64,000 nucleotides of DNA. Source: Clostridioides phage LIBA2945. This document shows, in pieces, positions 1 through 39,431 of the stretch; the stretch's first letter is position 1; each line of letters opens with the position of its first letter. A model generated the notes under the pieces. The model searched no databases. It saw nothing but the letters and a program-made list of their open reading frames with translations, and had not been told where the DNA came from. Where the stretch lies: the sequence record MF547663.1, one strand, 5' to 3'. Position numbers and translations under genes: made by a program.

Positions 1-3000
1 AAAATCAGTGATAAGTTACCTGCATTGCCAGGAAATATGGTTCAAGCATTAAATGAGCAATTTGCAAATGCTTTTACAGGAGACAATGCTCCTGAAATCA
101 CACCTAGTGTAAATGGAGAAAAAGCTAAAAAGGAATTAAAAGAGTTAGAAAAATTCAAACAAGATACTTTTAAATCAGATAAAATTGTGACTGAAATTAA
201 TAATAAAGGACTAGATTTCGCAAAAAAAGACTTGAGTGTATTAAAAGAACAGTTGGATAGATTTAAAAATGAAGATACAAAGTTGTCTTTTACTACAGAT
301 TGTGCAGATGCTTTTAAAGATGTAAATTCTTTAGAGGAAGCTAGAAAAAAAATATCTGCTCCAATGAGTTTAAAATATGATATAGATGTAGATAAAAAAG
401 GATTGACTGAAGCAAAAAAAGTCTATGATATTTTACCTGATAATCTCAAAAAAAAGATAGAAACAGAAGTAATAGGTATAGATAAATTAGACACATTACA
501 AAACTTAATAGATAAAGCTCCAAATAAAAAAGAAACTATATTTGAAATAATTAATAAAAATCCAGATAAGCTAAATGAGATAGATGAAATTCTTAATAAC
601 GTTCCAAATGATAAAAAGGAAGCTGTTATTGATTTTATAGTAAATAATTTAGACCAACTTGAAAAAGCTAAAAATGTACAAGAATTTATAAACAATTTAC
701 CTCCAGAAATAAAAAAACAACTTGGAATAGAAGTTGAAGGAGGAGAAAATGCAGAGAAAACTGTTAATACAGTTCAAAATGCAGATGGAACTAAGGCTGA
801 CCTTTTAGTAAATGCAGAAGTAAATGGAGAATCACAAGTAGTTGAATGCATAGAAACATTGGATAAGAATGGTAATAAAACATACACTCCTAATTTAAAT
901 CCTCAAGTTAATAATAGTGAAAAAGTTGTTCAGTGCATGAGAATATTAGATGAATATGGAAATGAATCTTATATTCCAATTGTAAGTCCTCAAGTTACTA
1001 ATGAAGAAGGGCTTAACAGTACTAAACAAAAAATGGATGAGTTAGATAATAAAACAGTAACTTCAACTGTACAAATAAAGACAGAAGGAGAAACTGAAGT
1101 TGAACAAGCAACCAATTTTATAGAAAATACAAATCCAACTAAGGTTATTGAGTTATCCATAAACAACTCTGGTAAAGATGAAATTGACAATACAAAACAA
1201 AAGTTAGATGAACTTAATAATGAAAAAGCCACTCCTACTATTGAAGCTACAGGTGCAGAACAAGCATCCAAACAATTAAATCAATTATCACAAAAAGCAC
1301 AAGAAATTGGGCAAGGTAATTATCATATAAATGTTAGTACTTCAACTGAACAAGGGGCTAAGAATATTTCAGGACTTATAGCTAGAGTAAAACAATTCTT
1401 AGCTTTGAAAGTATCTACACTTGTATTTAGAACTGAAACTGCACAAGCAGCAAAAAATGTATCAGGTTTGTTAGCCAAAGTACAAAGTTATGTTAGCCGA
1501 TATGGTGGAAAAACTATAAAGACTACATTTAGTGCATTAACTGCAACTGCTGCAAAGAACATATCAGGGCTTATTAGGAAAATAGAGTCATTTAAATCAA
1601 ATTATGCAGGAAAAACATTCACTACTACATTTGTAACTAATAAAGTGACTAATAGTTCTGGTGGTGGAGGAGGAGGAAATAGTTCAGATAAGACCAATAA
1701 AACTGAACGTACCTCTGTTACTAATGTAACTCCAATTCCAGCTAATCTATTAGCTCAACCTAGAACATCAGAACCAGCACCAATAAGTGACGAAACTCCT
1801 GTAACACCAAAACCATCCTTATTCTCAAGAGCAGTATCAAGAGCCACATCCGCTTTCAAAGTAATCAAACCTAAAGTTACAATAAACAATGACACAATAG
1901 ACTCATCTGTAAAATATAGTATAGAATTATTTAAAGAGTTAGAAAATGCTATATCAGCAGTAACAAATGAAATAGCTCTATTAGACAAAAAAATGGAACA
2001 TGCTACAGGTGATGAGAAGATTAAATACTTACAGGAGCAAAATAAATTATTTGCTCAACAAAAAGATTTAATAAAACAACAACAAGATGGATATAAAGCT
2101 GAAAGTAACAGACTTAAAAATAGATTAAAAGAAAAGAAAATGGGCTTTAAGTTTGATGATACTGGAAATCTAACTAACTATGAAGAAAAGTTAATATCAA
2201 TAGAAAAAGAATTAGACAAATTAAATTCAAAGTCTGGTGACAAAGAAAATAAAAAAGATGAATCCAGAAAAAAAGAGTTGGAAGAAACTAAGAAAGTCCT
2301 TGAAGAATATATTAAAGTTACATTTACAGAACTGCCTAAATGTGAGCAAGAATGGGAAGAATACAATAATAAAATTAAAGAACACAATGAGGAGTTAAGG
2401 AAAGCACAAGAAGAAATGTGGAAACTTAATAAGAATTCCACATGGACTTCTATGTACAAAGATGTAGAGCAAGTAAATAATGAAATAGCAATGATAGATG
2501 TATTACTTAAAAATGCTACAGGTGATGAGCAGATAGAGTTGTTAGAAAAGAAAAAAGAGTTAATGGCCAAGAAGGCTAAAGAACTATCTGAAACAACAGC
2601 ATATCTTCAAGAAACACAAAAAGAGCTACAACAAAAGCTACAAGGCTATGGATTTACATTTAGAGATAATGGCGATATAACTAACTTCATTCAACATAAA
2701 AATCAACTTAAAAAGAACATGACTGATGAAGAATTTAAGAGAATGGAAGAGGCAGCAGAGGGATATTTGGATTTATTGATAAATAAAATACCTGATGCCA
2801 ATAAGGAAATTGCTGAATCTAAGGAAGAAATTGAAGCATTAAATAAAGAAATTCAAGATGCTTATAAAGACCAGCTTAAAGAAGCTCAAAGCCTACAAGA
2901 AAAAATTAGAGACATGTATAAAAAAGAGCTTGAAGAGAGACTTAAAGAAATAGATAAAGAAACTAAAGCTAAAATTGATTCTCTTAAAAAGCAACAAGAT

Positions 3001-3723
3001 GCTTACAATGATTCAAGAAAAGAAGCCAAATATAAAGATGATTATGAAGAACAACAAGATGTAATAAGTGATTTAGAAAAACAAATAGCAATAGCTGAAA
3101 GAGATAGTTCTTTAAGTGGTCAGAAGAAACTTAAAGATTTACAAAAACAATTAAAAGAAGAACAGAAGAAATTACAGGATTTAGTACAAGACCATGTAGA
3201 CGACCAAGTTAACGATATGTATGACAAGGAATCTGACAGACTACAAGAAGAAGCAGATAAGTTAAAAGAAGAGTTAGAGAAAAAATACTCAGATGAAAAT
3301 TTAGTTGATTTAATTAATGAAGCAATTTCAAGCGGTAAATTTGTAGGTCTTGATGGAGAGGTTAAGAAACTTCAAGATGCTATTATTGAATACATAAATA
3401 AATATGAAGATGGTATGTTGGCAATGGGTTCTGTCACTAAGCAGGAATGGCTCGATAGATTAAAAGAAGGTAAAGAGACATTAGAAGATATTAATGACAT
3501 ATTGGATGAATTAGATTTAAGTAAATTTGCTATGCCTAATTATAATCCTCCTTCAAATTCTCGTTCAAGAAGTACATCTCCAATATCAGCAGTTAATTAT
3601 AATTCACCATTTGTTGTTGTACAAGGGAATGTAACTAAAGATGTAATGCCTGAATTTGAAAAGAAGATGAGGAAAATGATTGAAGAAAATAACAAAAAAA
3701 TTATTTCTAATACTAGGTCTTAA
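1..3723 (+). CDS. Tail tape-measure-like protein, 5'-truncated at the window edge. It is a long coiled-coil protein with an internal 3x ~33-aa tandem repeat (AKNISGLI...) and a poly-Gly patch
   Basis: The ORF is open from nt 1. Composition is K/E-rich coiled coil. It sits immediately upstream of the Dit/Tal-like pair. The assignment is positional/architectural only. Confidence 0.5.
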   Translation, partial: KISDKLPALPGNMVQALNEQFANAFTGDNAPEITPSVNGEKAKKELKELEKFKQDTFKSDKIVTEINNKGLDFAKKDLSVLKEQLDRFKNEDTKLSFTTDCADAFKDVNSLEEARKKISAPMSLKYDIDVDKKGLTEAKKVYDILPDNLKKKIETEVIGIDKLDTLQNLIDKAPNKKETIFEIINKNPDKLNEIDEILNNVPNDKKEAVIDFIVNNLDQLEKAKNVQEFINNLPPEIKKQLGIEVEGGENAEKTVNTVQNADGTKADLLVNAEVNGESQVVECIETLDKNGNKTYTPNLNPQVNNSEKVVQCMRILDEYGNESYIPIVSPQVTNEEGLNSTKQKMDELDNKTVTSTVQIKTEGETEVEQATNFIENTNPTKVIELSINNSGKDEIDNTKQKLDELNNEKATPTIEATGAEQASKQLNQLSQKAQEIGQGNYHINVSTSTEQGAKNISGLIARVKQFLALKVSTLVFRTETAQAAKNVSGLLAKVQSYVSRYGGKTIKTTFSALTATAAKNISGLIRKIESFKSNYAGKTFTTTFVTNKVTNSSGGGGGGNSSDKTNKTERTSVTNVTPIPANLLAQPRTSEPAPISDETPVTPKPSLFSRAVSRATSAFKVIKPKVTINNDTIDSSVKYSIELFKELENAISAVTNEIALLDKKMEHATGDEKIKYLQEQNKLFAQQKDLIKQQQDGYKAESNRLKNRLKEKKMGFKFDDTGNLTNYEEKLISIEKELDKLNSKSGDKENKKDESRKKELEETKKVLEEYIKVTFTELPKCEQEWEEYNNKIKEHNEELRKAQEEMWKLNKNSTWTSMYKDVEQVNNEIAMIDVLLKNATGDEQIELLEKKKELMAKKAKELSETTAYLQETQKELQQKLQGYGFTFRDNGDITNFIQHKNQLKKNMTDEEFKRMEEAAEGYLDLLINKIPDANKEIAESKEEIEALNKEIQDAYKDQLKEAQSLQEKIRDMYKKELEERLKEIDKETKAKIDSLKKQQDAYNDSRKEAKYKDDYEEQQDVISDLEKQIAIAERDSSLSGQKKLKDLQKQLKEEQKKLQDLVQDHVDDQVNDMYDKESDRLQEEADKLKEELEKKYSDENLVDLINEAISSGKFVGLDGEVKKLQDAIIEYINKYEDGMLAMGSVTKQEWLDRLKEGKETLEDINDILDELDLSKFAMPNYNPPSNSRSRSTSPISAVNYNSPFVVVQGNVTKDVMPEFEKKMRKMIEENNKKIISNTRS

Positions 3724-3861
3724 TATATGTAATTGGTCTTTATTTATTATTCACTCATTTACTTACGTTTTATAATTTATAGTCAGATTTTTTTTGAAAA
3801 TATATATTTATCTAATAAAAAATATTGTTTATAAAAAACGTATTTATGATATAATAGTAAT

Positions 3862-4005
3862 ATAAATGATATAAATTTATATCATAAAGACATAAAAAAA
3901 GAGACTACAACTATTTGTGCTAGGGTGTCTCTTCATAAATAAGCGAAGTGTTAATTAGAGGAAGAATCACCTGAATTGCCGTTCGGGTGATTCTTAATTT
4001 TTTGC
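3862..4005 (+). ncRNA. Candidate cis-antisense antitoxin RNA, copy 1. A plus-strand extended -10 'tgatataat' lies at 3847-3855. The terminator hairpin 3965-3994 plus a T-run lies inside the toxin ORF 3' end
   Basis: Promoter and intrinsic terminator read directly. The RNA would overlap about 50 nt of the convergent toxin ORF. The region is conserved in copy 2. Confidence 0.45.
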
Positions 4006-4130
4006 AACGTTTTCTTAAACTCATCTATTTCTTTAAAGAGTCTATTTAAATTCTGAACCAACTTAATCAAACTAATAATTATAGTTGTAAGAAATGTTAT
4101 TATCGTTAACAAACAAATTAGATATTTCAT
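3951..4130 (-). CDS. Small membrane peptide (59 aa, MKYLICLLTIITFLTTIIISLIKLVQNLNRLFKEIDEFKKTLQKIKNHPNGNSGDSSSN). Candidate type I toxin, copy 1
   Basis: Translated by hand. A strong SD 'gaggggaggtg' lies 7 nt upstream of the ATG at 4130. It has an N-terminal TM helix and a charged tail. An upstream minus-strand promoter is TTAACA-16-TATAAT with an extended TG (4224-4251). Confidence 0.6.
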   Translation of the reverse strand: MKYLICLLTIITFLTTIIISLIKLVQNLNRLFKEIDEFKKTLQKIKNHPNGNSGDSSSN

Positions 4131-4391
4131 AATATCATATCACCTCCCCTCTTGATTTGACATGGGAAGGCTTATGTATATGAAGATTCACCCTAATAGT
4201 TTTTTTATGTAGTCTCTAAAAATATTATACCATAAATTACCAATATGTTAAATTTAATATTATATTGTCTACAATTGTAAAAGAATATTGTGTTCTAAGA
4301 AGTTATTCTATTAATAGTATAGCTTTTTTATTTTTCAATGAAGATAATGACAACATTGACTATTTTGATAATATTGGAGTATAATAGTAAT

Positions 4392-4548
4392 ATAAATGAT
4401 ATAAATTTATATCATAGGGACATAAAAAAGAGACTACAAACTATTTGCTGTAGGGTGTAGTTCTTAAAGTTAACAATAAAAAGAATAGATTTATGTATTA
4501 CTTTCAGAATCACTAGACCCGCCAGTCTGGTGATTCTTTAGTTTTCTA
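4392..4548 (+). ncRNA. Candidate antisense antitoxin RNA, copy 2. Promoter TTGACT(4356-4361)-18-TATAAT(4380-4385). Terminator hairpin 4507-4536 'gaatcactagacccgccagtctggtgattc' plus a T-run
   Basis: Canonical sigma-A promoter and hairpin read directly. Convergent overlap with the toxin ORF 3' end. Confidence 0.5.
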
Positions 4549-4652
4549 ATAGATGCTTTCAAGTTTAAGATTGCATCTATTAGCTTTGTCAAATGATTGA
4601 TTATTCTTGTAATCATAATTATCATTATTAAAAACAAAACTAAGTACTCCAT
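4491..4652 (-). CDS. Small membrane peptide (53 aa, MEYLVLFLIMIIMITRIINHLTKLIDAILNLKASIRKLKNHQTGGSSDSESNT). Candidate type I toxin, copy 2, paralog of 3951-4130
   Basis: SD 'aagggggtgagac' upstream of the ATG at 4652. It has the same K-L/I-KNH-x-G-x-S-x-DS tail and the same promoter block at 4726-4760. Confidence 0.6.
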   Translation of the reverse strand: MEYLVLFLIMIIMITRIINHLTKLIDAILNLKASIRKLKNHQTGGSSDSESNT

Positions 4653-4910
4653 AGTCTCACCCCCTTTCTTACTGGGGATTTTAACTAAAGAGCCATCACC
4701 CTAATAGTCTAAACTGTAGTCTCTAAAAATATTATACCATAATTTTCCAATATGTTAAATTTAATATTATATTGACGACAGGAGTAGAATAAAGATATAA
4801 TACAGATAACAGAAAATTTAAAAATTTTACATAAGAATTACTACTTATCTATGCCACCTTAAAAAGTGGCTATTTTTCTATTCTGGTATATATTTAAGGA
4901 GGTGTTACAA

Positions 4911-5066
4911 ATGATAAATAATATAGAAGATTGTAAGCTTCTTATTGAGGCAGAAATAAGAATGAAAGATATAGATGAAAAAGAACTAATATCTCAAAGG
5001 GAGATTCTGAAAGACCTAAATATTAATGAAAAAGACCTTGAAGATATTGAAGTGAATTTTGAATAA
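4911..5066 (+). CDS. Small acidic hypothetical protein (51 aa from the ATG at 4911)
   Basis: Perfect SD 'aaggaggtg' 7 nt upstream of ATG 4911. The track ORF starts earlier at 4866. Confidence 0.4.
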   Translation: MINNIEDCKLLIEAEIRMKDIDEKELISQREILKDLNINEKDLEDIEVNFE

Positions 5067-5201
5067 TGAAATGATTTATAATATACCTATTTTAAATATG
5101 TATTAGTTGATATCAGTAATCGTCTTTATCTAGTGATTTTTTATTTATTAACTGTAAACGAATCTGTTTTACAAAAAACGTATCTGTGGTATAATAAAAG
5201 T

Positions 5202-5306
5202 AAGGAATTTAATCTACTTAATACAAAGAGTGATTGTTTCCTTAAAGTTAATTAAAAATTAATTTATCTTTTGAAACCACTCTTATTGGCGTCTGAGTGG
5301 TTTTTT
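5202..5306 (+). ncRNA. Candidate antisense antitoxin RNA, copy 3. Promoter 'aaaaaacgtatctgtggtataat' (-10 at 5190-5195). Terminator hairpin 5273-5300 'aaaccactcttattggcgtctgagtggttt' plus T6
   Basis: The promoter motif 'aaaaaacgtat.t.tg.tataat' is shared with copy 1 (3836-3855). The hairpin lies inside the toxin ORF 3' end. Confidence 0.45.
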
Positions 5307-5380
5307 GCTTTATCATATATGTAACAAGCTATTAAACTTGTTGCAATATTTAGGCAAATATTAAACACTACTGTTTCCAT
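5264..5380 (-). CDS. Small membrane peptide (38 aa, METVVFNICLNIATSLIACYIYDKAKNHSDANKSGFKR). Candidate type I toxin, copy 3
   Basis: SD 'taaggaggtg' upstream of ATG 5380. The minus-strand promoter 'tatggtataat' at about 5495-5512 gives a ~120-nt 5'UTR with a second SD-like 'aaggaaggaggtg'. Confidence 0.6.
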   Translation of the reverse strand: METVVFNICLNIATSLIACYIYDKAKNHSDANKSGFKR

Positions 5381-5582
5381 AAATTCACCTCCTTATAAAA
5401 AAATAAAGCGAGGCTCACCTCCTTCCTTTGAAGAAGTAGGCTAAATACAGAAACAACCACTCTTAGCACTTTCGATTTAAAATTCCTTACTATACTAGAT
5501 TATACCATAATTTTACAATTAATAAAATATTTTAGCTCATCTTAATTGATGGGCTTTTCTAATACAAAGAAGGTGATAAAAT

Positions 5583-7298
5583 ATGCATTTTAATGTGAAT
5601 CTTAAACAGATAAAATCTGATTACACATTAACCATTCACAAGATGAACAAATCATTTTTAGGTCAAATTCCAATCAACTTTTTAAACTCGATAAAGCGGG
5701 AGCTTGGTGGAGTAGATGAAATACAACTGACCATTCCAAAATATATTACAGATAGATTTTTATTTAATAAAATAATAAATCCCATTTTTGAAGAAGTAAA
5801 AGAAGAACGTCTTATTTGTCTTAATAATAAAGAGTACTTTGTAATTAAGAATGTTGTAACAACAGATGATAAGTTAAAAGTAGTAACAGCTAAATCTAAA
5901 GAAGTTAAACTAGGAAAAATTGATGTGAATATTGAGGACTATGGATTACAGATGTTTACCAAAGATGAAGAAGCATCTATTATATCTCTTAATGATTATT
6001 TAAAACAAGAGACAGGCTGGAAACTTGGTTATGTGGATGATTCAATTGCTTATGAAACTGATAGTGAAGGTAATAAGAGAGAAAAGGTAAGATGGCAAGA
6101 AAGTATTAATTCTAACTGGTTAGACTATTTTAATAATGAACTAAAAGAACAATTTGAATGTATAGCTGATTTTGATACTTATAATAATTTAGTTAATTTG
6201 TATCATATAGATAGTTTTGGAGATAACATTCAGTTATATTTATCTCATGATAACTACATAAAATCACTTGAAAGAACTACAAATAGTGATGATATAGTAA
6301 CTAGACTGAAGCTTGAAGGTAGTGAAGATATGAATGTAATAGGAGCTACAGTTACAGGATATGATTACATTGAGAACTATTCTTATTTCTTAGACAATAA
6401 AGAAATGAGTGAAGAACTTAGTAGAGCTATAAAGAAATACCAAGAAATGAATGAAATAAGAGAGCCAATTTGGAGAGAACTAATAGATACAAAGCTTAAG
6501 AAGCAAAGAGAACGTGATAGTAAAAGCAACGAATGGCAAATGGTAATAGAGATGATAAGTAAGAAAAAAGATATAAAAAAGACATATGATAATCCACAGC
6601 ATAAAGATGAAATAAATTCAGCTAAAATAGCAGTAGAGATAAGTGAACTAGAAGATAAAAAAGTCATATTGGATGTTCAAATAAAACATTTAGAAGAAGA
6701 AATAGCTAAGTTAAATGAAAGTATAAAAGATATAAATATTCTTTGTAAGAGGGAGACTTCAACTGATGAGGATGGATATCTAATATTTAATGAGGTTCTA
6801 TTAGATGAATTAAATGAGTTCCTCTACTATGACACTTATACAAATGATGCTTTTTTAAAAGTTGAAGATTTAATAGCAGAAGGTAAAAGGCAATTAAGTT
6901 TGAAATGTATTCCAACACGAGAATGGACTCTGGATGTTATAAACTTCTTAGATAGAATTATAGATATTAATTTTAGACAGCATTGGAAGGGTGATTTGAG
7001 CTTAGGAGATATTATAGTGTTACATAGCAAAGAATCTAAAGAAGAAGAATTAGTATATTTTACATCTTTTACCCAGAATTTAAAAAACGGGAAGTTAGAT
7101 ACTTTAGAATTAACTTTAAGTAATAAAAAAATAAAAGAAGATGACAAAAGAACTATAGCTGATTATTTGACTAAAGCTGAACACGCAACAAGAACATTGA
7201 ACTCTAAAAGACATTTATTTATTCAGCAACAGAAGAAAAGAATTAACCTACCAGATGAATATATTCCTAAGAAAAATATACAAAAGGAGTTGATGTAG
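5583..7298 (+). CDS. Putative distal tail protein (Dit-like), 571 aa
   Basis: It follows the tape measure and its stop overlaps the start of the next gene. Positional inference only. Confidence 0.35.
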   Translation: MHFNVNLKQIKSDYTLTIHKMNKSFLGQIPINFLNSIKRELGGVDEIQLTIPKYITDRFLFNKIINPIFEEVKEERLICLNNKEYFVIKNVVTTDDKLKVVTAKSKEVKLGKIDVNIEDYGLQMFTKDEEASIISLNDYLKQETGWKLGYVDDSIAYETDSEGNKREKVRWQESINSNWLDYFNNELKEQFECIADFDTYNNLVNLYHIDSFGDNIQLYLSHDNYIKSLERTTNSDDIVTRLKLEGSEDMNVIGATVTGYDYIENYSYFLDNKEMSEELSRAIKKYQEMNEIREPIWRELIDTKLKKQRERDSKSNEWQMVIEMISKKKDIKKTYDNPQHKDEINSAKIAVEISELEDKKVILDVQIKHLEEEIAKLNESIKDINILCKRETSTDEDGYLIFNEVLLDELNEFLYYDTYTNDAFLKVEDLIAEGKRQLSLKCIPTREWTLDVINFLDRIIDINFRQHWKGDLSLGDIIVLHSKESKEEELVYFTSFTQNLKNGKLDTLELTLSNKKIKEDDKRTIADYLTKAEHATRTLNSKRHLFIQQQKKRINLPDEYIPKKNIQKELM

Positions 7299-25294: not shown

Positions 25295-25350
25295 ATGTTA
25301 TTTACATGAAATTTTGTTTTAATATTCTTAATTTGTGGTATAATAAAAGC

Positions 25351-25473
25351 AAGGAAACATATTTTACTTAACTTTGAGTGATGTTTCCAAACTAAATTAG
25401 TTTATTTGGATTTTCTTTGGAACTTAATATTAAGTTCCCAGCCACTCTTAGTCGCGTTTGAGTGGCTTTTTAA
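25351..25473 (+). ncRNA. Candidate antisense antitoxin RNA, copy 4. Promoter 'ttgtggtataat' (-10 at 25339-25344). Terminator hairpin 25441-25468 'agccactcttagtcgcgtttgagtggct' + T5
   Basis: Same architecture and near-identical promoter ('tgtggtataataaaag.aaggaa') as copy 3. Confidence 0.45.
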
Positions 25474-25533
25474 TTTATCGTAGATATAACTAGCTATAAC
25501 ACCAGCTATAATACTCATCATTAGATTTTCCAT
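25402..25533 (-). CDS. Small membrane peptide (43 aa, MENLMMSIIAGVIASYIYDKLKSHSNATKSGWELNIKFQRKSK). Candidate type I toxin, copy 4, and closest paralog of copy 3
   Basis: SD 'gaaaggaggtg' upstream of the ATG at 25533. The minus-strand extended -10 'tgatataat' lies at about 25624-25632. It shares 'IA.YIYDK.K.HS.A.KSG' with 5264-5380. Confidence 0.6.
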   Translation of the reverse strand: MENLMMSIIAGVIASYIYDKLKSHSNATKSGWELNIKFQRKSK

Positions 25534-25715
25534 AGTTTTTCACCTCCTTTCATAAGAAAGTGAGGAAATTTCTATGGAAACACCACTCACAGCTTTTTCA
25601 AATATTTATTCCTTGCTATGTTTATTATATCATAAATATTGGAAATATAAAATTTTAATATTTTCTAAAATCTGACGCTTTAAACGCCATTCTAAGGCTT
25701 TATAAAAATTTACCT

Positions 25716-35473: not shown

Positions 35474-36325
35474 TTACTTTCTTATATCTTTCATAAGCAA
35501 ATATATTATCATATCTTTAGATAAATTTTCTTTTGAATATGCTATTGCTTTATTTAAGATTTCTAATATTTCACAATAATTACGACATTCATCAAATAAT
35601 AATTGAGAAAATGTATCTGAAAATCTAATCTTTTTCATTTGATTCATAAACATTCTATGATAATATTCTTGTTCTCCTAATTTACATATGGCATACCATT
35701 TAGACTTAGTGTTTACTTCAGGAAAACTATTTTGTATATGTAGTTTTAATTTATCAAAAGTTAATTCTTCTAAAAATATTATCTCTTTAGCAGCTATTTT
35801 ATTTATTTTATGACCACGTAAAACACTACCTGAAAGGAGAGTCACTTCACCATATTCTTTACCATATTTATATTTATCGGCTTTTTTCACTAGAGCTTTT
35901 ACTTTAAAAAATCTATTGCTTAAATTTGGAGCATAATATTGAAATACGTCACCCAAGTCTAAACATAAATGGAATCCCCAATTCCATATATTAATATCAT
36001 CACCATCCATACTATAGGCTTTGTTTAATTCATATTGAAATTCCTTACATTTCATATTTTTATCTGTACATTTATATCCTTCAACCCAAGCCCATTCCTT
36101 TCCCTCATTTTCCTTTACTCTTTCTACTTTTTTTCTTTCTTCTTCTATCTTTTTTTCTTTTTCCAATTCTATTTTTAACCTATCAATATCTAATAGTTTT
36201 CTTTCCATTTCTTTATCATATTGTATATTATCTCTATTATATATTGGTTGTTTGGGAGGAGGAGAAGGAGGTTCTTCTTCTGTTATTTTTACATTTCTAC
36301 CATATTTTTTATTGAAGATACTCAA
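35474..36325 (-). CDS. Hypothetical protein, 283 aa, with an N-terminal proline patch and a K/E-rich coiled coil
   Basis: ORF, SD 'agtgaggtg'. Confidence 0.35.
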   Translation of the reverse strand: MSIFNKKYGRNVKITEEEPPSPPPKQPIYNRDNIQYDKEMERKLLDIDRLKIELEKEKKIEEERKKVERVKENEGKEWAWVEGYKCTDKNMKCKEFQYELNKAYSMDGDDINIWNWGFHLCLDLGDVFQYYAPNLSNRFFKVKALVKKADKYKYGKEYGEVTLLSGSVLRGHKINKIAAKEIIFLEELTFDKLKLHIQNSFPEVNTKSKWYAICKLGEQEYYHRMFMNQMKKIRFSDTFSQLLFDECRNYCEILEILNKAIAYSKENLSKDMIIYLLMKDIRK

Positions 36326-36345
36326 TATAATATCACCTCACTTTA

Positions 36346-36633
36346 TTATTTAGAAACTATTTTAATTTTATATCCTAGTTCATCTTCAATTTCTTCTTTA
36401 GTCATTGATTTAGGATTACTTTCTAACTCTTCTTTTTTTGGTAAGTGTATAAAATAACATTCAATTGGTAAGCAATTTTCTCCTTTAGTTTTATGAAAGA
36501 GTCCAAAAAAACTAGTATCACTCACTGTATAAATTTCACCTTTTTTATAATTTCCTATGTTATTTATACAATATAATTTATCTCCCATGTGTACGTTTTT
36601 TATTAAAAATTTTATCATGTAATCTACCTCCAA
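36346..36633 (-). CDS. Hypothetical protein, 95 aa
   Basis: ORF, SD 'ggaggtag'. Confidence 0.3.
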   Translation of the reverse strand: MEVDYMIKFLIKNVHMGDKLYCINNIGNYKKGEIYTVSDTSFFGLFHKTKGENCLPIECYFIHLPKKEELESNPKSMTKEEIEDELGYKIKIVSK

Positions 36634-36712
36634 TTCATATTAAAACACATATTTTATTTCATAAATTCTTCTTTAGTCAAAAATCACCTCCTAAGAAGGG
36701 AAATTTCCCTTC

Positions 36713-37213
36713 TTAATTCATATATAGTATTACTTGTTTTTTATTTAATGATTGTTGAACATCAATTATCCTTTGATTTGATGAACCTTTAAAAATTAAC
36801 TCTAAAGATTTTTTATCTTCTTCAAATTTTCCATCTACAAGAACATCTATTAATTTTAACAATTCTAGCTTTTCATTGTCTGTTATGAGTTCTTCAAACT
36901 TAAAACCTGTATAACACCATATTGTTTTGTTTGTATTCTTTTTAATTAATTTAGCTAAATGAACAAATCCTTGCAGTTGTAGAAGTGGGTCTCCTCCTGA
37001 AAATGTTACATCTGAAAATTTATTTGAAATGATTTCCTTATAAATATCTAATACTTTAGTTAAAGTTCCATTTTTTATATCCCAAGATTGAGGATTGTGG
37101 CAGCCTCTACACATATGATTACATCCAGAACAATAAATAGATGTTCTAAACCCTTCTCCATCAACAATTGTGTCATGTTTTATATCTAAAATATAAATAT
37201 AGTCTTTATCCAT
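36713..37213 (-). CDS. nrdG: Anaerobic ribonucleoside-triphosphate reductase activating protein (radical SAM)
   Basis: 'CSGCNHMCRGC' CxxxCxxC cluster. Size about 160 aa. Overlaps nrdD. Confidence 0.75.
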   Translation of the reverse strand: MDKDYIYILDIKHDTIVDGEGFRTSIYCSGCNHMCRGCHNPQSWDIKNGTLTKVLDIYKEIISNKFSDVTFSGGDPLLQLQGFVHLAKLIKKNTNKTIWCYTGFKFEELITDNEKLELLKLIDVLVDGKFEEDKKSLELIFKGSSNQRIIDVQQSLNKKQVILYMN

Positions 37214-39431
37214 GTGTGACTCTATCCTTTAACTCAGCTAATTTTGCATTATTCCAGCTATCCGTAGTTCCAACTAGATATCCTGTAATTCTTTGTATAA
37301 TATTTATGTTATGACTTCCACATTTTGGGCATTCTTTTAACTCTGAATCTGCATTTTCAAAACCACAATTAAGACATCTGCTTCTTGTATGGTTTACAGA
37401 ACCATAACCCATATTGTATTTTTTTATTAAATCCACAACCTTCATTATAGCTTTAGGATTATGTGTTGCATCCCCATCTAATTCAACATAAAATATGTGG
37501 CCACCACCTTCTAATTCATGGTAAGATGCTTCTATTTTCGCTTTATGTTCAACATTGCAGTTATACCAAACTGGAACATGAGAACTATTAGTATAATAAT
37601 CTTTGTCTGTAATATTTTTTATTTCTCCAAATATTTTTTTATCTTTTTGAGTAAATTTTCCAGAAAGACCTTCTGCGGGTGTGCCTAATACAGAATAATT
37701 GAGGTTATATTTCTTTTTATATTTTTCTACTTTAGACTTTAAAAATGATATGATTTCTAAACCTAATTTTTGTGCCTTTTCGCTTTCACCATGATGTTCA
37801 CCTATAAGAGCTATTAAACATTCTGCTAGACCTATAAATCCTACCCCAAGTGTTCCATGCTTTAAAACTTCGCTTACATCATCATTTGGATTTAAATTTT
37901 CTGAGTTTTTCCATAACCCACTCATTAATAGTGGAAACTGTTTTGCTTTAGCAGTACATTGAAATAAGTATCTATCATATAATTGTCTTGCTACTACATC
38001 TGAATATTTATCAAGAAGAAAAATAAACTCTGCAACTCTATTAGCTTCATTATTTGGATATTTTTCTTTAGCCTCTAATGCCATTTTTACTAAATTAAGA
38101 GTCGTAAAAGATAGATTTCCTCTTCCTATACTTGTTTTTTCTCCATGCAAATCTTCAAATACCCTTGTACGACACCCCATTGTTGCTACTTCATAAATAT
38201 ATCTGTTTGGGTCACACATTTTCCATTTTACATGCTTATTGAAGGTTGCATCTAAATTTAAAAAATTAGGGAAAAATCTTTTAGCTGATACTTTACATGC
38301 TAATTCATATAAGTCATAATTTCTATCAGTAGGATTATAGTTCACACCTTCTTTCACTTTCCAGATTTGAATTGGGAAAATTGGTGTTTCTCCATTTCCG
38401 ACTCCTTCATAAGTAGATTTTAGTATTTCTCTTATTATACATCTACCTTCTGCTGAAGTATCTGTACCATAATTTATAGAACTAAACACGACCTGATTTC
38501 CACCCCTTGAATGAATTGTGTTCATATTATGTATAAATGACTCCATTGATTGATGAACTCTCCATACAGTTCTGTTTATAGCATGTTGAACATTTCTTTT
38601 TTCGCTGTCTAATTCTTTTAAGTCCTTAATTATATAATCCTCTATTTCTATATTGTATAAATGAGATAAATCAATATCATCCTTTATTTCTATATTTTTT
38701 ATTTCTTCTATAAATGTTTTTCTTACACTCGGAGCATTATAAAAATCAAAAGCTGGTATCGCCTGTCCTCCATGCATTTCATTTTGTACAGTCTCTAAAC
38801 TAATACATCCTAATATACTTGAAGTCTCTATTCTTTTAGTAGGTCTACTAGAGCCATGTCCCGCTCTAAAACCATTATTAAAAATTTTATCTAAAGGATG
38901 TTGGATACAAGTTAATGATTTCGTAGGATAATAGTCTTTATCATGTATATGTATATAATTATCCATCATTGCTTCTTTTGCTTCTTCAGATAAAAGTACA
39001 TGGTCAGTAAAAGTTTTAGTAGCTTCACTTGCAAACTTCATCATCATACCTGCTGGAGTATCTGCATTCATATTTGCATTTTCTTTAGTTATATCATTAC
39101 TTTCAGTATTTACAATAGACATATAATCATTATAAGTTTTTCTTCCTCTTGCTATATTTCTTTTCTCTCTGTATGTTATATATTCTTTAGCGACATCTTT
39201 CTTTTTACTAGCCATTAAGCTAAATTCGATTATATCTTGTATATCTTCTATATGCATTTTTTCACATGGTTTATTTTTTATTTTTTTAGCTATTAGCGTT
39301 GCTAATTCTCTATCAAATGCTTCACTTTTTCCTTTATTCCTTAATGATAAAAAGCTTTTTTCTATTGCGTCTATTATTTTGTTTTCATCAAAGGGAACTA
39401 TTCTCCCATCTCTTTTAATTACGTTTAACAT
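37206..39431 (-). CDS. nrdD: Anaerobic ribonucleoside-triphosphate reductase (class III)
   Basis: 741 aa. C-terminal Zn ribbon 'CLNCGF...CPKCGS' followed by the glycyl-radical motif 'RITGYLVG'. Confidence 0.8.
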   Translation of the reverse strand: MLNVIKRDGRIVPFDENKIIDAIEKSFLSLRNKGKSEAFDRELATLIAKKIKNKPCEKMHIEDIQDIIEFSLMASKKKDVAKEYITYREKRNIARGRKTYNDYMSIVNTESNDITKENANMNADTPAGMMMKFASEATKTFTDHVLLSEEAKEAMMDNYIHIHDKDYYPTKSLTCIQHPLDKIFNNGFRAGHGSSRPTKRIETSSILGCISLETVQNEMHGGQAIPAFDFYNAPSVRKTFIEEIKNIEIKDDIDLSHLYNIEIEDYIIKDLKELDSEKRNVQHAINRTVWRVHQSMESFIHNMNTIHSRGGNQVVFSSINYGTDTSAEGRCIIREILKSTYEGVGNGETPIFPIQIWKVKEGVNYNPTDRNYDLYELACKVSAKRFFPNFLNLDATFNKHVKWKMCDPNRYIYEVATMGCRTRVFEDLHGEKTSIGRGNLSFTTLNLVKMALEAKEKYPNNEANRVAEFIFLLDKYSDVVARQLYDRYLFQCTAKAKQFPLLMSGLWKNSENLNPNDDVSEVLKHGTLGVGFIGLAECLIALIGEHHGESEKAQKLGLEIISFLKSKVEKYKKKYNLNYSVLGTPAEGLSGKFTQKDKKIFGEIKNITDKDYYTNSSHVPVWYNCNVEHKAKIEASYHELEGGGHIFYVELDGDATHNPKAIMKVVDLIKKYNMGYGSVNHTRSRCLNCGFENADSELKECPKCGSHNINIIQRITGYLVGTTDSWNNAKLAELKDRVTHG

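Follow-up and report, generated by a model that had tools for sequence, protein, structure and literature searches.

Is the short open reading frame (ORF) directly upstream of a minor tail protein gene in Clostridioides phage LIBA2945 the toxin gene of a toxin-antitoxin (TA) pair, and if so, of what type? We examined this in a 64,000-nucleotide (nt) stretch of the phage genome (MF547663.1, hereafter the window), for which a first-pass annotation made from the letters alone had proposed a 38-amino-acid (aa) peptide faced by a convergent antisense RNA, as the third of three TA-like loci within 1.7 kb. All three loci are there, packed into positions 3828-5518 (~1.7 kb), and we refer to them as modules 1, 2 and 3 (M1, M2, M3). 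The core claim of a small toxin with a convergent antisense RNA is supported by homology to validated modules of Clostridioides difficile, and M3 is very probably a type I TA module of the C. difficile phage family that includes CD0956.3-RCd14 and CD0904.1-RCd13. The evidence obtained here comprises the anatomy of M3, the homology of both of its genes, compensated changes in its terminator, and an ORF kept intact, with conservative substitutions, in several elements. As such, M3 would represent an unannotated variant of a characterised phage type I TA family, in which a 38-aa toxin has a replaced N-terminus and a duplicated Shine-Dalgarno (SD) sequence.

The homology of the M3 toxin is visible at the level of single peptides and of families. 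It shares 47% identity over 34 aa with a CD0956.3-like peptide (BLASTP, E=1e-11) and matches phrog_738 (E=8.9e-13) and NCBIfam NF047374 'CD_typeI_toxin' (E=5.2e-7); Pfam returned nothing meaningful for any small peptide of the island. On the DNA level, positions 5162-5324, a span that reaches from the -10 box of the antitoxin to slightly beyond its terminator, have 74-80% blastn identity to ~30 further C. difficile phages and ~25 plasmids. At the matching locus of phiCDKH02 (L004) the opposite strand encodes MIGFLLSILAGVISAYIYDKIKNHPDANKGDLKK, and this locus holds the cloning primers of CD0956.3-RCd14 (JP694 and JP695 exactly, JP574 almost exactly), while loci of type U06 hold those of CD0904.1-RCd13 (JP594, JP595, JP635). 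These primer anchors tie the sequences to experimentally validated modules: in both CD0956.3-RCd14 and CD0904.1-RCd13, induction of the toxin arrests growth and the antisense RNA neutralises it (Peltier 2020, PMC7699646). A terminator-motif scan of viral contigs supplied 85 usable loci of this kind, 46 of them distinct.

The homology extends to the antisense partner. The predicted M3 antitoxin aligns over its full length with 17 other distinct homologues, and the covariance model built from these 18 sequences (R1) assigns it 99.4 bits, M3 being itself a training sequence; no Rfam family falls on 5199-5306, a scan of 3600-5700 at E <= 10 having returned chance-level matches (E >= 1.4). As a 105-nt RNA it is predicted to fold at -26.5 kcal/mol (z = -4.95). 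Its 5' stem retains GGAA/UUCC among the 18 sequences and shows one compensatory pair. The 5' arm of its terminator, AAAAACCACUC, is the complement of the toxin codons for K-N-H-S. As proposed, the terminator hairpin (5273-5304 plus a U run) lies within the last codons of the peptide. Two pairs of this stem are altered on both sides in 7 of the 18 sequences (C-G to U-A and U-A to C-G), giving AACCACTC...GAGTGGTT versus AATCACCC...GGGTGATT (M3/RCd14 family), and these compensated changes correspond in the toxin to a synonymous N codon and to S or P at the next residue. The hairpin was passed over by the terminator scan only owing to its 12-nt loop and appears on direct folding. The antitoxin is antisense, with full complementarity, to the last 14 toxin codons (a coding overlap of 43 nt) and to the toxin 3' untranslated region (UTR). 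M3 combines a convergent antisense RNA, with its own predicted sigma-A promoter and Rho-independent terminator, and an overlap at the 3' end of the toxin gene.

Both promoters have counterparts elsewhere. The predicted promoter of the antitoxin matches the consensus at 11 of 12 positions with an additional TG, is one of the top five sites of the region, and occupies the same position as the promoters that were cloned with RCd13 (primer JP635) and RCd14 (JP695) in the published constructs. Over 49 nt it shares 73% identity with the antisense promoter of module 1 (repeat family D5); a plus-strand core common to the two copies had already been noted. The anticipated minus-strand promoter with a long 5'UTR is likewise present; it is unchanged in four M3-type elements, and the 5'UTR is predicted at ~111 nt. 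Toxin mRNAs mapped for relatives measure 298-306 nt. The mRNA of CD0956.2 maps to 1124042-1124339, where 1124339 is exactly the start site of RCd10, and the long form of RCd10 ends at the toxin start (Maikova 2018, PMC5961336, Table 1 for the mapped ends). By analogy with CD0956.2, we infer that the M3 toxin mRNA ends near 5199.

Table 1. Features of M3 and of the related modules, in window coordinates.
Feature	Position	Strand	Remarks
Toxin ORF (M3)	5264-5380	-	38 aa, METVVFNICLNIATSLIACYIYDKAKNHSDANKSGFKR
Shine-Dalgarno sequence	5385-5394	-	AAGGAGGTGA / AAGGAGGUGA; GGAGG at 5388-5392, ending 7 nt before ATG 5380
Predicted anti-SD, GCCUC	5410-5414	-	Predicted to pair with the true SD (some states) or with the pseudo-SD
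Pseudo-SD (second SD-like element)	5416-5428	-	AAGGAAGGAGGTG / AAGGAAGGAGGUG; 30 nt upstream of the working SD
5' arm of toxin mRNA	5450-5491	-	Resembles the antitoxin 5' end; complementary to the mRNA's own 3' end
Toxin promoter	5499-5507	-	Extended -10 TGGTATAAT; repeat families D2 and D4, common to modules 1 and 2
Alternative toxin promoter	5489-5518	-	TTGTAA-18-TATAGT; overlaps 5499-5507
Predicted toxin mRNA	5199-5491	-	~293 nt with 5'UTR of ~111 nt; from promoter position and relatives' mapped mRNAs
3' arm of predicted toxin mRNA (3'UTR)	5199-5240	-	Complement of the antitoxin 5' end; then U-rich run UUUUAUUAU
Predicted antitoxin promoter	5168-5195	+	-35 TTTACA, 16-nt spacer, extended -10 TGgTATAAT
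Predicted antitoxin RNA	5199-5306	+	~105-108 nt; homologue of RCd14/RCd13
5' stem-loop of antitoxin	5201-5244	+	-12.5 kcal/mol, z = -3.0
Rho-independent terminator	5273-5306	+	Hairpin 5273-5304 and U run to 5306; -12.8 kcal/mol, z = -3.6
Terminator-like hairpin and U run	5534-5560	+	Right edge of the island; -11.4 kcal/mol, z = -5.1
Module 1 toxin	3951-4130	-	59 aa, phrog_5620
Module 2 toxin	4491-4652	-	53 aa, phrog_5620
Fourth module (M4)	25348-25640		Found with the covariance model of the M3-type antitoxin
M4 antitoxin	25348-25471	+	
M4 toxin	25402-25533	-	43 aa, MENLMMSIIAGVIASYIYDKLKSHSNATKSGWELNIKFQRKSK
M4 toxin promoter and 5' arm	about 25571-25640	-	

The peptide itself has a hydrophobic N-terminal segment (residues 3-19, with a Kyte-Doolittle maximum of 1.86 over 17 residues) and a basic tail (5 K/R versus 2 D/E). 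The perfect SD claimed for it is real, GGAGG standing 7 nt from the ATG, and four M3-type elements share an unchanged GGAGGUG core. A ribosome-binding site 7-8 nt upstream of the ATG is a criterion for type I toxins of C. difficile (Peltier 2020, PMC7699646), and M3 has such a site at that distance.

A second SD-like element further upstream had been suggested to sequester the SD. The element exists; the two SDs have the same polarity, however, and cannot pair with each other because of it. An alignment with 12 canonical loci offers a different account, in which AAGGAAGGAGGUG is their working SD, 8-9 nt before the ATG, and M3-type loci carry a 39-nt insertion that brings its own SD and ATG and changes the N-terminus. 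Judged from this alignment, the pseudo-SD is a relic, namely the ancestral SD of the canonical 34/35-aa family. A role as a second start site was also considered and rejected: no start codon follows within reach of it, and in the alignment it coincides with the true SD of the relatives. In predicted folds the pseudo-SD pairs with CUUCUUC (5433-5439). For the SD, the predicted unpaired probability ranged from 0.1 to 0.6 with no consistent direction among full-length, 3'-truncated and antitoxin-bound mRNA models of five loci.

The M3-type toxin gene occurs both intact and with its start deleted. The intact form is found in LIBA6276, CP083617, the CD161 plasmid, the IMG/VR locus L062 and phage ES-S-0173-01, the last from another Clostridioides species; changes among these are limited to I8V, A13V, T14S and D30N/K, and the exact M3 peptide is present on 184 contigs. 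A second allele has lost 165 bp (window 5354-5518; junction at 3147/3148 of L003 in phiCD211) and occurs in phiCD211, phiCDIF1296T, AR1086-1 and three plasmids (CP037823, CP132148, CP149699). This deletion takes out the toxin start, both SDs, the 5'UTR and the promoter, and leaves the antitoxin and its promoter intact as an orphan. The antitoxin RNA is retained more often than the toxin, and several viral loci have an antitoxin RNA without an ORF. Side by side, the intact and the deleted allele make up a naturally occurring series in which the toxin is lost and the antitoxin kept. A tandem of plus-strand antitoxin-like RNAs was also seen in phiCD38-2 (L002, 1500-1620 and 1697-1850): the first is an orphan with no toxin opposite, and the second is antisense to gp33, a 50-aa toxin noted in Peltier 2020.

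If M3 works as its characterised relatives do, a toxin mRNA of ~290 nt would be transcribed from the minus strand, starting near 5491 and ending near 5199, and would encode the 38-aa peptide with its single hydrophobic helix and basic tail, which would, by homology, insert in the membrane and arrest growth. From the plus strand, a sigma-A-type promoter would drive an RNA of ~105 nt that ends at the terminator in the last toxin codons. By analogy, the duplex of antitoxin and mRNA would block toxin synthesis and hand the mRNA to ribonucleases (RNases). In relatives, the half-lives are about 89 min for the toxin mRNA and about 8 min for the antitoxin, and RNases III, J and Y contribute to RNA decay. 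A stable mRNA could thus outlast its labile antitoxin, and cells that lose a plasmid-like prophage would be poisoned (post-segregational killing); stabilisation of plasmids and of a prophage is the sole tested role of the relatives' modules (Peltier 2020, PMC7699646). For M3 itself, transcript ends, expression, toxicity, neutralisation and a role in maintenance are those we would expect from these relatives.

Three observations weigh against a functional M3 toxin of this family. Its score on NF047374 is 30 bits, below the curated cut-off of 60; its N-terminal half departs from the canonical LLSILAGVISA and its 5'UTR has an insertion, so that activity could be altered; and at least six phiCD211-like elements are without toxin start and promoter through the 165-bp deletion. 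The cut-off also leaves out a short CD0956.3-like toxin of the validated type (53.6 bits) and the toxin of the fourth module (55.1 bits), and because the short CD0956.3-like toxin is excluded too, it defines a ~50-aa equivalog and not the wider family. The deletion alleles and orphan antitoxins do imply that the toxin is dispensable. They would equally suit a decayed module, in which the toxin became inactive after replacement of its N-terminus and SD and the antitoxin is kept as anti-addiction immunity against related toxins. Orphan antitoxins are common (the deletion alleles, the phiCD38-2 copy in tandem with the gp33 antitoxin, the ORF-less viral loci) and blastn conservation peaks over the RNA itself, but decay is an improbable account of an ORF that, where present, is intact in at least five elements, one of them from another species, with conservative substitutions, an invariant SD core and promoter, a preserved design of hydrophobic head and basic tail, and the exact peptide on so many contigs.

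The type I TA module that we favour could also be functional and serve another purpose than maintenance, such as abortive infection, superinfection exclusion, or a stress or biofilm response. Relatives are co-regulated with clustered regularly interspaced short palindromic repeat (CRISPR) arrays, SigB and biofilm conditions, and maintenance alone would hardly call for four modules in a single phage. Stabilisation of plasmids and prophage is nevertheless the only role tested in the family (Peltier 2020, PMC7699646), and phiCD211-like elements, being deposited as circular plasmid records too, make post-segregational killing a natural function; the sequence itself fits either role, and a non-maintenance role is rather unlikely, if less so than decay of the toxin. 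Very hard to sustain is the scenario that the first-pass annotation had named as its own refutation, with an inactive plus-strand promoter and a hairpin that merely terminates the gene at 4911-5066. Gene and hairpin do share a strand, with the hairpin downstream, but 207 nt separate it from the stop codon, and an 11/12 extended -10 promoter lies in between. Promoter, 5' hairpin and terminator travel together, recurring as a unit without the 4911-5066 gene in phiCD38-2, phiCDKH02, other 30-55-kb phages and plasmids; in L062 and L099 the left flank diverges directly upstream of the -10; and the homologous RCd13 and RCd14 neutralise their toxins.

How might such an mRNA be kept stable and silent? 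Toxin mRNA and antitoxin begin with similar stretches of ~45 nt, which in the DNA form an inverted repeat (I1, 5199-5240 versus 5450-5491, 74% complementary). If its 3' end behaves as in CD0956.2, the M3 mRNA (5491 to ~5199) has complementary ends. The full-length mRNA is predicted to fold at -86.4 kcal/mol (z = -6.4), with a long 5'-3' closing helix in the minimum free energy structure, and its two arms form a duplex of -41.4 kcal/mol versus -12.6 +/- 3.2 for shuffles. Cognate arm duplexes of the window's four modules range from -36 to -44 kcal/mol (shuffled: -11 to -14 +/- 3) and non-cognate combinations among them are weaker; across locus types, cognate arms reach -33 to -47 versus -18 to -33 for unrelated types. 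Alone, the toxin 5' arm folds at -4.4 and the toxin 3'UTR at -7.8 kcal/mol, and because each arm by itself folds so weakly, two independent hairpins are less favoured than a panhandle.

Covariation points the same way for the inner part of this helix. Its 13 pairs are 94.8% paired over 18 distinct loci, with 7 of the 13 altered on both sides, and 21 compensated cells were counted versus 7.1 +/- 3.2 in shuffles (0 of 500 reach 21); slid controls were 41-61% paired. These formal counts cover the 13-pair inner helix only, the outermost helix having been misaligned by MAFFT in the mini-constructs. By inspection, the outer helix has GUAAGG in both arms of M3-type loci and GCAAGG in all others. Where the arms differ, G.U predominates when they are read in the toxin-mRNA sense (9 columns versus 3 with A.C), which is only suggestive. 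An exception is U01, the commonest CD0956.3-like locus type, where the arms are of mismatched types and the duplex is weaker, at -30 kcal/mol.

On the strength of these models, the toxin mRNA of the whole C. difficile type I TA family, M3 included, might be closed as a blunt 5'-3' panhandle that the antitoxin opens by strand displacement, a proposal that we make tentatively and rate at somewhat under an even chance. The panhandle would protect both ends of the toxin mRNA; the antitoxin 5' end, a near-copy of the mRNA 5' arm, would displace that arm from the 3' arm; and the opened structure would expose both mRNA ends to RNases. If true, this would account for the very long half-life of the toxin mRNA, for an mRNA that by mapping ends precisely where the antitoxin starts on the other strand, and for the published 'tightly folded' mRNA that binds antitoxin only partly in vitro. 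The co-varying 5' ends of toxin mRNA and antitoxin would thereby offer a structural hypothesis for keeping the mRNA stable and silent; in the papers searched on the C. difficile type I TA family we found no description of a 5'-3' interaction in the toxin mRNA. The likeness of the arms might alternatively stem from gene conversion between duplicated promoter-leader cassettes, from a 5' stabiliser motif common to both RNAs, or from a loop-loop contact between the conserved, arm-specific middles GAAAGU (toxin mRNA) and ACUUU (antitoxin).

Compared with known systems, M3 stands closest to the short variants CD0956.3-RCd14 and CD0904.1-RCd13 of prophage phiCD630-1. It has the same toxin C-terminal half, (A/C)YIYDK.KNH..ANK, the same SD spacing of 7 nt, the same toxin promoter and 5' arm, and a convergent RNA of ~105 nt with a 5' AG(C/U)AAGGAA start, a 5' hairpin and the terminator CTTATTGGCGTYTGRGTG; all are phage-borne. 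M3 differs in its N-terminus, which reads METVVFNICLNIATSLIAC in place of M(I/L)(G/IN)FLLSI(L/V)AG(V/I)(I/V)SA, in length (38 versus 34-35 aa), in its predicted 5'UTR (~111 versus ~84 nt), and in the 5' ends of both RNAs, which carry G-U-AAGG instead of G-C-AAGG. The large variants CD0956.2-RCd10, CD2907.1-RCd9 and phiCD38-2 gp33 (PMC5961336) belong to the same superfamily (NF047374, phrog_738) and have the same convergent layout. The geometry assumed for M3 follows the mapped 298-nt mRNA of CD0956.2, whose 3' end coincides with the start site of the antitoxin. Unlike M3, their toxins, of 50-53 aa, have an extra lysine-rich extension past the terminator-encoded motif, and many of these modules adjoin CRISPR arrays; the fourth module of the window is of this large type.

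More distant type I systems share single traits. In txpA/RatA and bsrG/SR4 of Bacillus subtilis prophages, a small membrane toxin is controlled by an antitoxin on the 3' part of the toxin mRNA, and the SD is partly sequestered; SR4 alters the accessibility of the SD. M3 resembles them in prophage location and 3' overlap, while the C. difficile family has no sequence similarity to them. The 5'-3' end pairing predicted for the M3 mRNA is known from hok/Sok (fbi-tac pairing) and from AapA1/IsoA1 of Helicobacter; in those systems, however, the antitoxin acts at the translation-initiation region near the 5' end and the mRNA becomes active on 3' trimming, whereas the M3 antitoxin covers the 3' end (5199-5306) and not the SD or AUG. 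With par of pAD1 (Fst/RNA II), M3 has in common that its genes converge and that both RNAs carry repeats at their 5' ends. We ruled out a par-like design, given that the repeats are inverted in M3 (I1) and direct in par, where the RNA 5' ends are complementary and not alike as in M3. A shared bidirectional terminator, as in par, was likewise ruled out, the M3 hairpin lying inside the toxin ORF with a U run on the plus strand only.

What links M3 to its neighbours is the RNA scaffold. Modules 1, 2 and 3 have in common both promoter cores (D2, D4, D5), the RNA 5' arms, the terminator layout and the terminator-encoded KNH, whereas the M1 and M2 toxins have no detectable similarity to that of M3 and no match to NF047374. 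M3 had been described as a diverged copy of the other two, and this stands for the scaffold; kinship of the toxins does not follow, with phrog_738 on one side and phrog_5620 on the other. The KNH tail had been offered as a sign of protein kinship conserved in all four copies. It occurs in three, as M4 carries KSH, and it makes no independent sign of kinship, its codons (AAA AAC CAC in M3, AAG AAT CAC in M1) doubling as the antitoxin terminator stem; since they form one arm of that stem, the motif is doubly constrained. M1 and M2 toxins may represent an uncharacterised family that makes use of this same RNA scaffold. Their C-terminal tails are polar or acidic, and the 5' part of their antisense RNAs resembles RCd11.

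The closest paralogue of M3 in the window is M4, the only further family member found there. Its antitoxin scores 37.5 bits on the M3-type covariance model, versus 27.1 bits for that of M1, and its toxin is 52% identical to the M3 toxin over 31 aa and a CD_typeI_toxin of the large variant (55 bits on NF047374). Mosaic loci were also encountered. In ES-S-0173-01 (L099, 1540-1600) an M3-type RNA is joined at the -10 box to a module-2-like upstream region, and the IMG/VR loci L015, L034, L044 and L083 combine an RCd11-like 5' part with an RCd14-type terminator. Shared promoters and terminators appear, from these junctions, to be recombination points. In the Terrisporobacter plasmids NZ_CP154618.1 and NZ_CP101639.1, blastn aligned stretches of 36-85 nt to the antitoxin region at 78-97% identity, which suggests that the RNA scaffold reaches beyond Clostridioides.

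The island occupies the 1.86 kb that separate the tape-measure gene (25-3723) from the minor tail protein gene (5583-7298; phrog_6211, E=3e-212) of a 134-kb phage of the phiCD211-like type. Positions 3700-5600 are 100% identical to Clostridioides phage LIBA6276 (MF547662.1, record positions 35700-37600), and phiCD211, phiCDIF1296T and AR1086-1 show 97.5% identity over the first 87% of this span. phiCD211-like megaphages carry four type I TA modules, three of them between the tape-measure and tail genes and all of them called 'hypothetical' in public records, and elements of this kind (~130 kb) have been deposited as circular plasmid records as well. This is relevant to annotation, to the persistence of episomal prophages and to curing strains of them, the host being an important pathogen. 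In the LIBA6276 record the 38-aa ORF is labelled hypothetical (LIBA6276_00034), and in the clusters of the M3 toxin and its homologues every public-record member is named 'hypothetical' or 'uncharacterised protein', experimentally validated types included.

The region is rich in terminator-like sites, with 6 observed versus 0.3 expected in shuffles. The hairpin at the right edge of the island may be a stop for read-through (long) antitoxin transcripts, its assignment to M3 being inferred; both of its arms are altered in sequence in L097 and L099, and it sits 25 nt upstream of the SD of the minor tail gene. Transcripts running from the tape-measure gene into the tail genes would face four plus-strand terminators (3962-4003, 4506-4545, 5273-5306 and 5534-5560). 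Also on the plus strand, the ORF at 4911-5066 encodes an acidic 51-aa protein of phrog_13860, a family with a function-less label. It has its own 11/12 promoter at 4772-4801, and its leader looks like an attenuator, with a hairpin and U tract at 4853-4879, before the SD.

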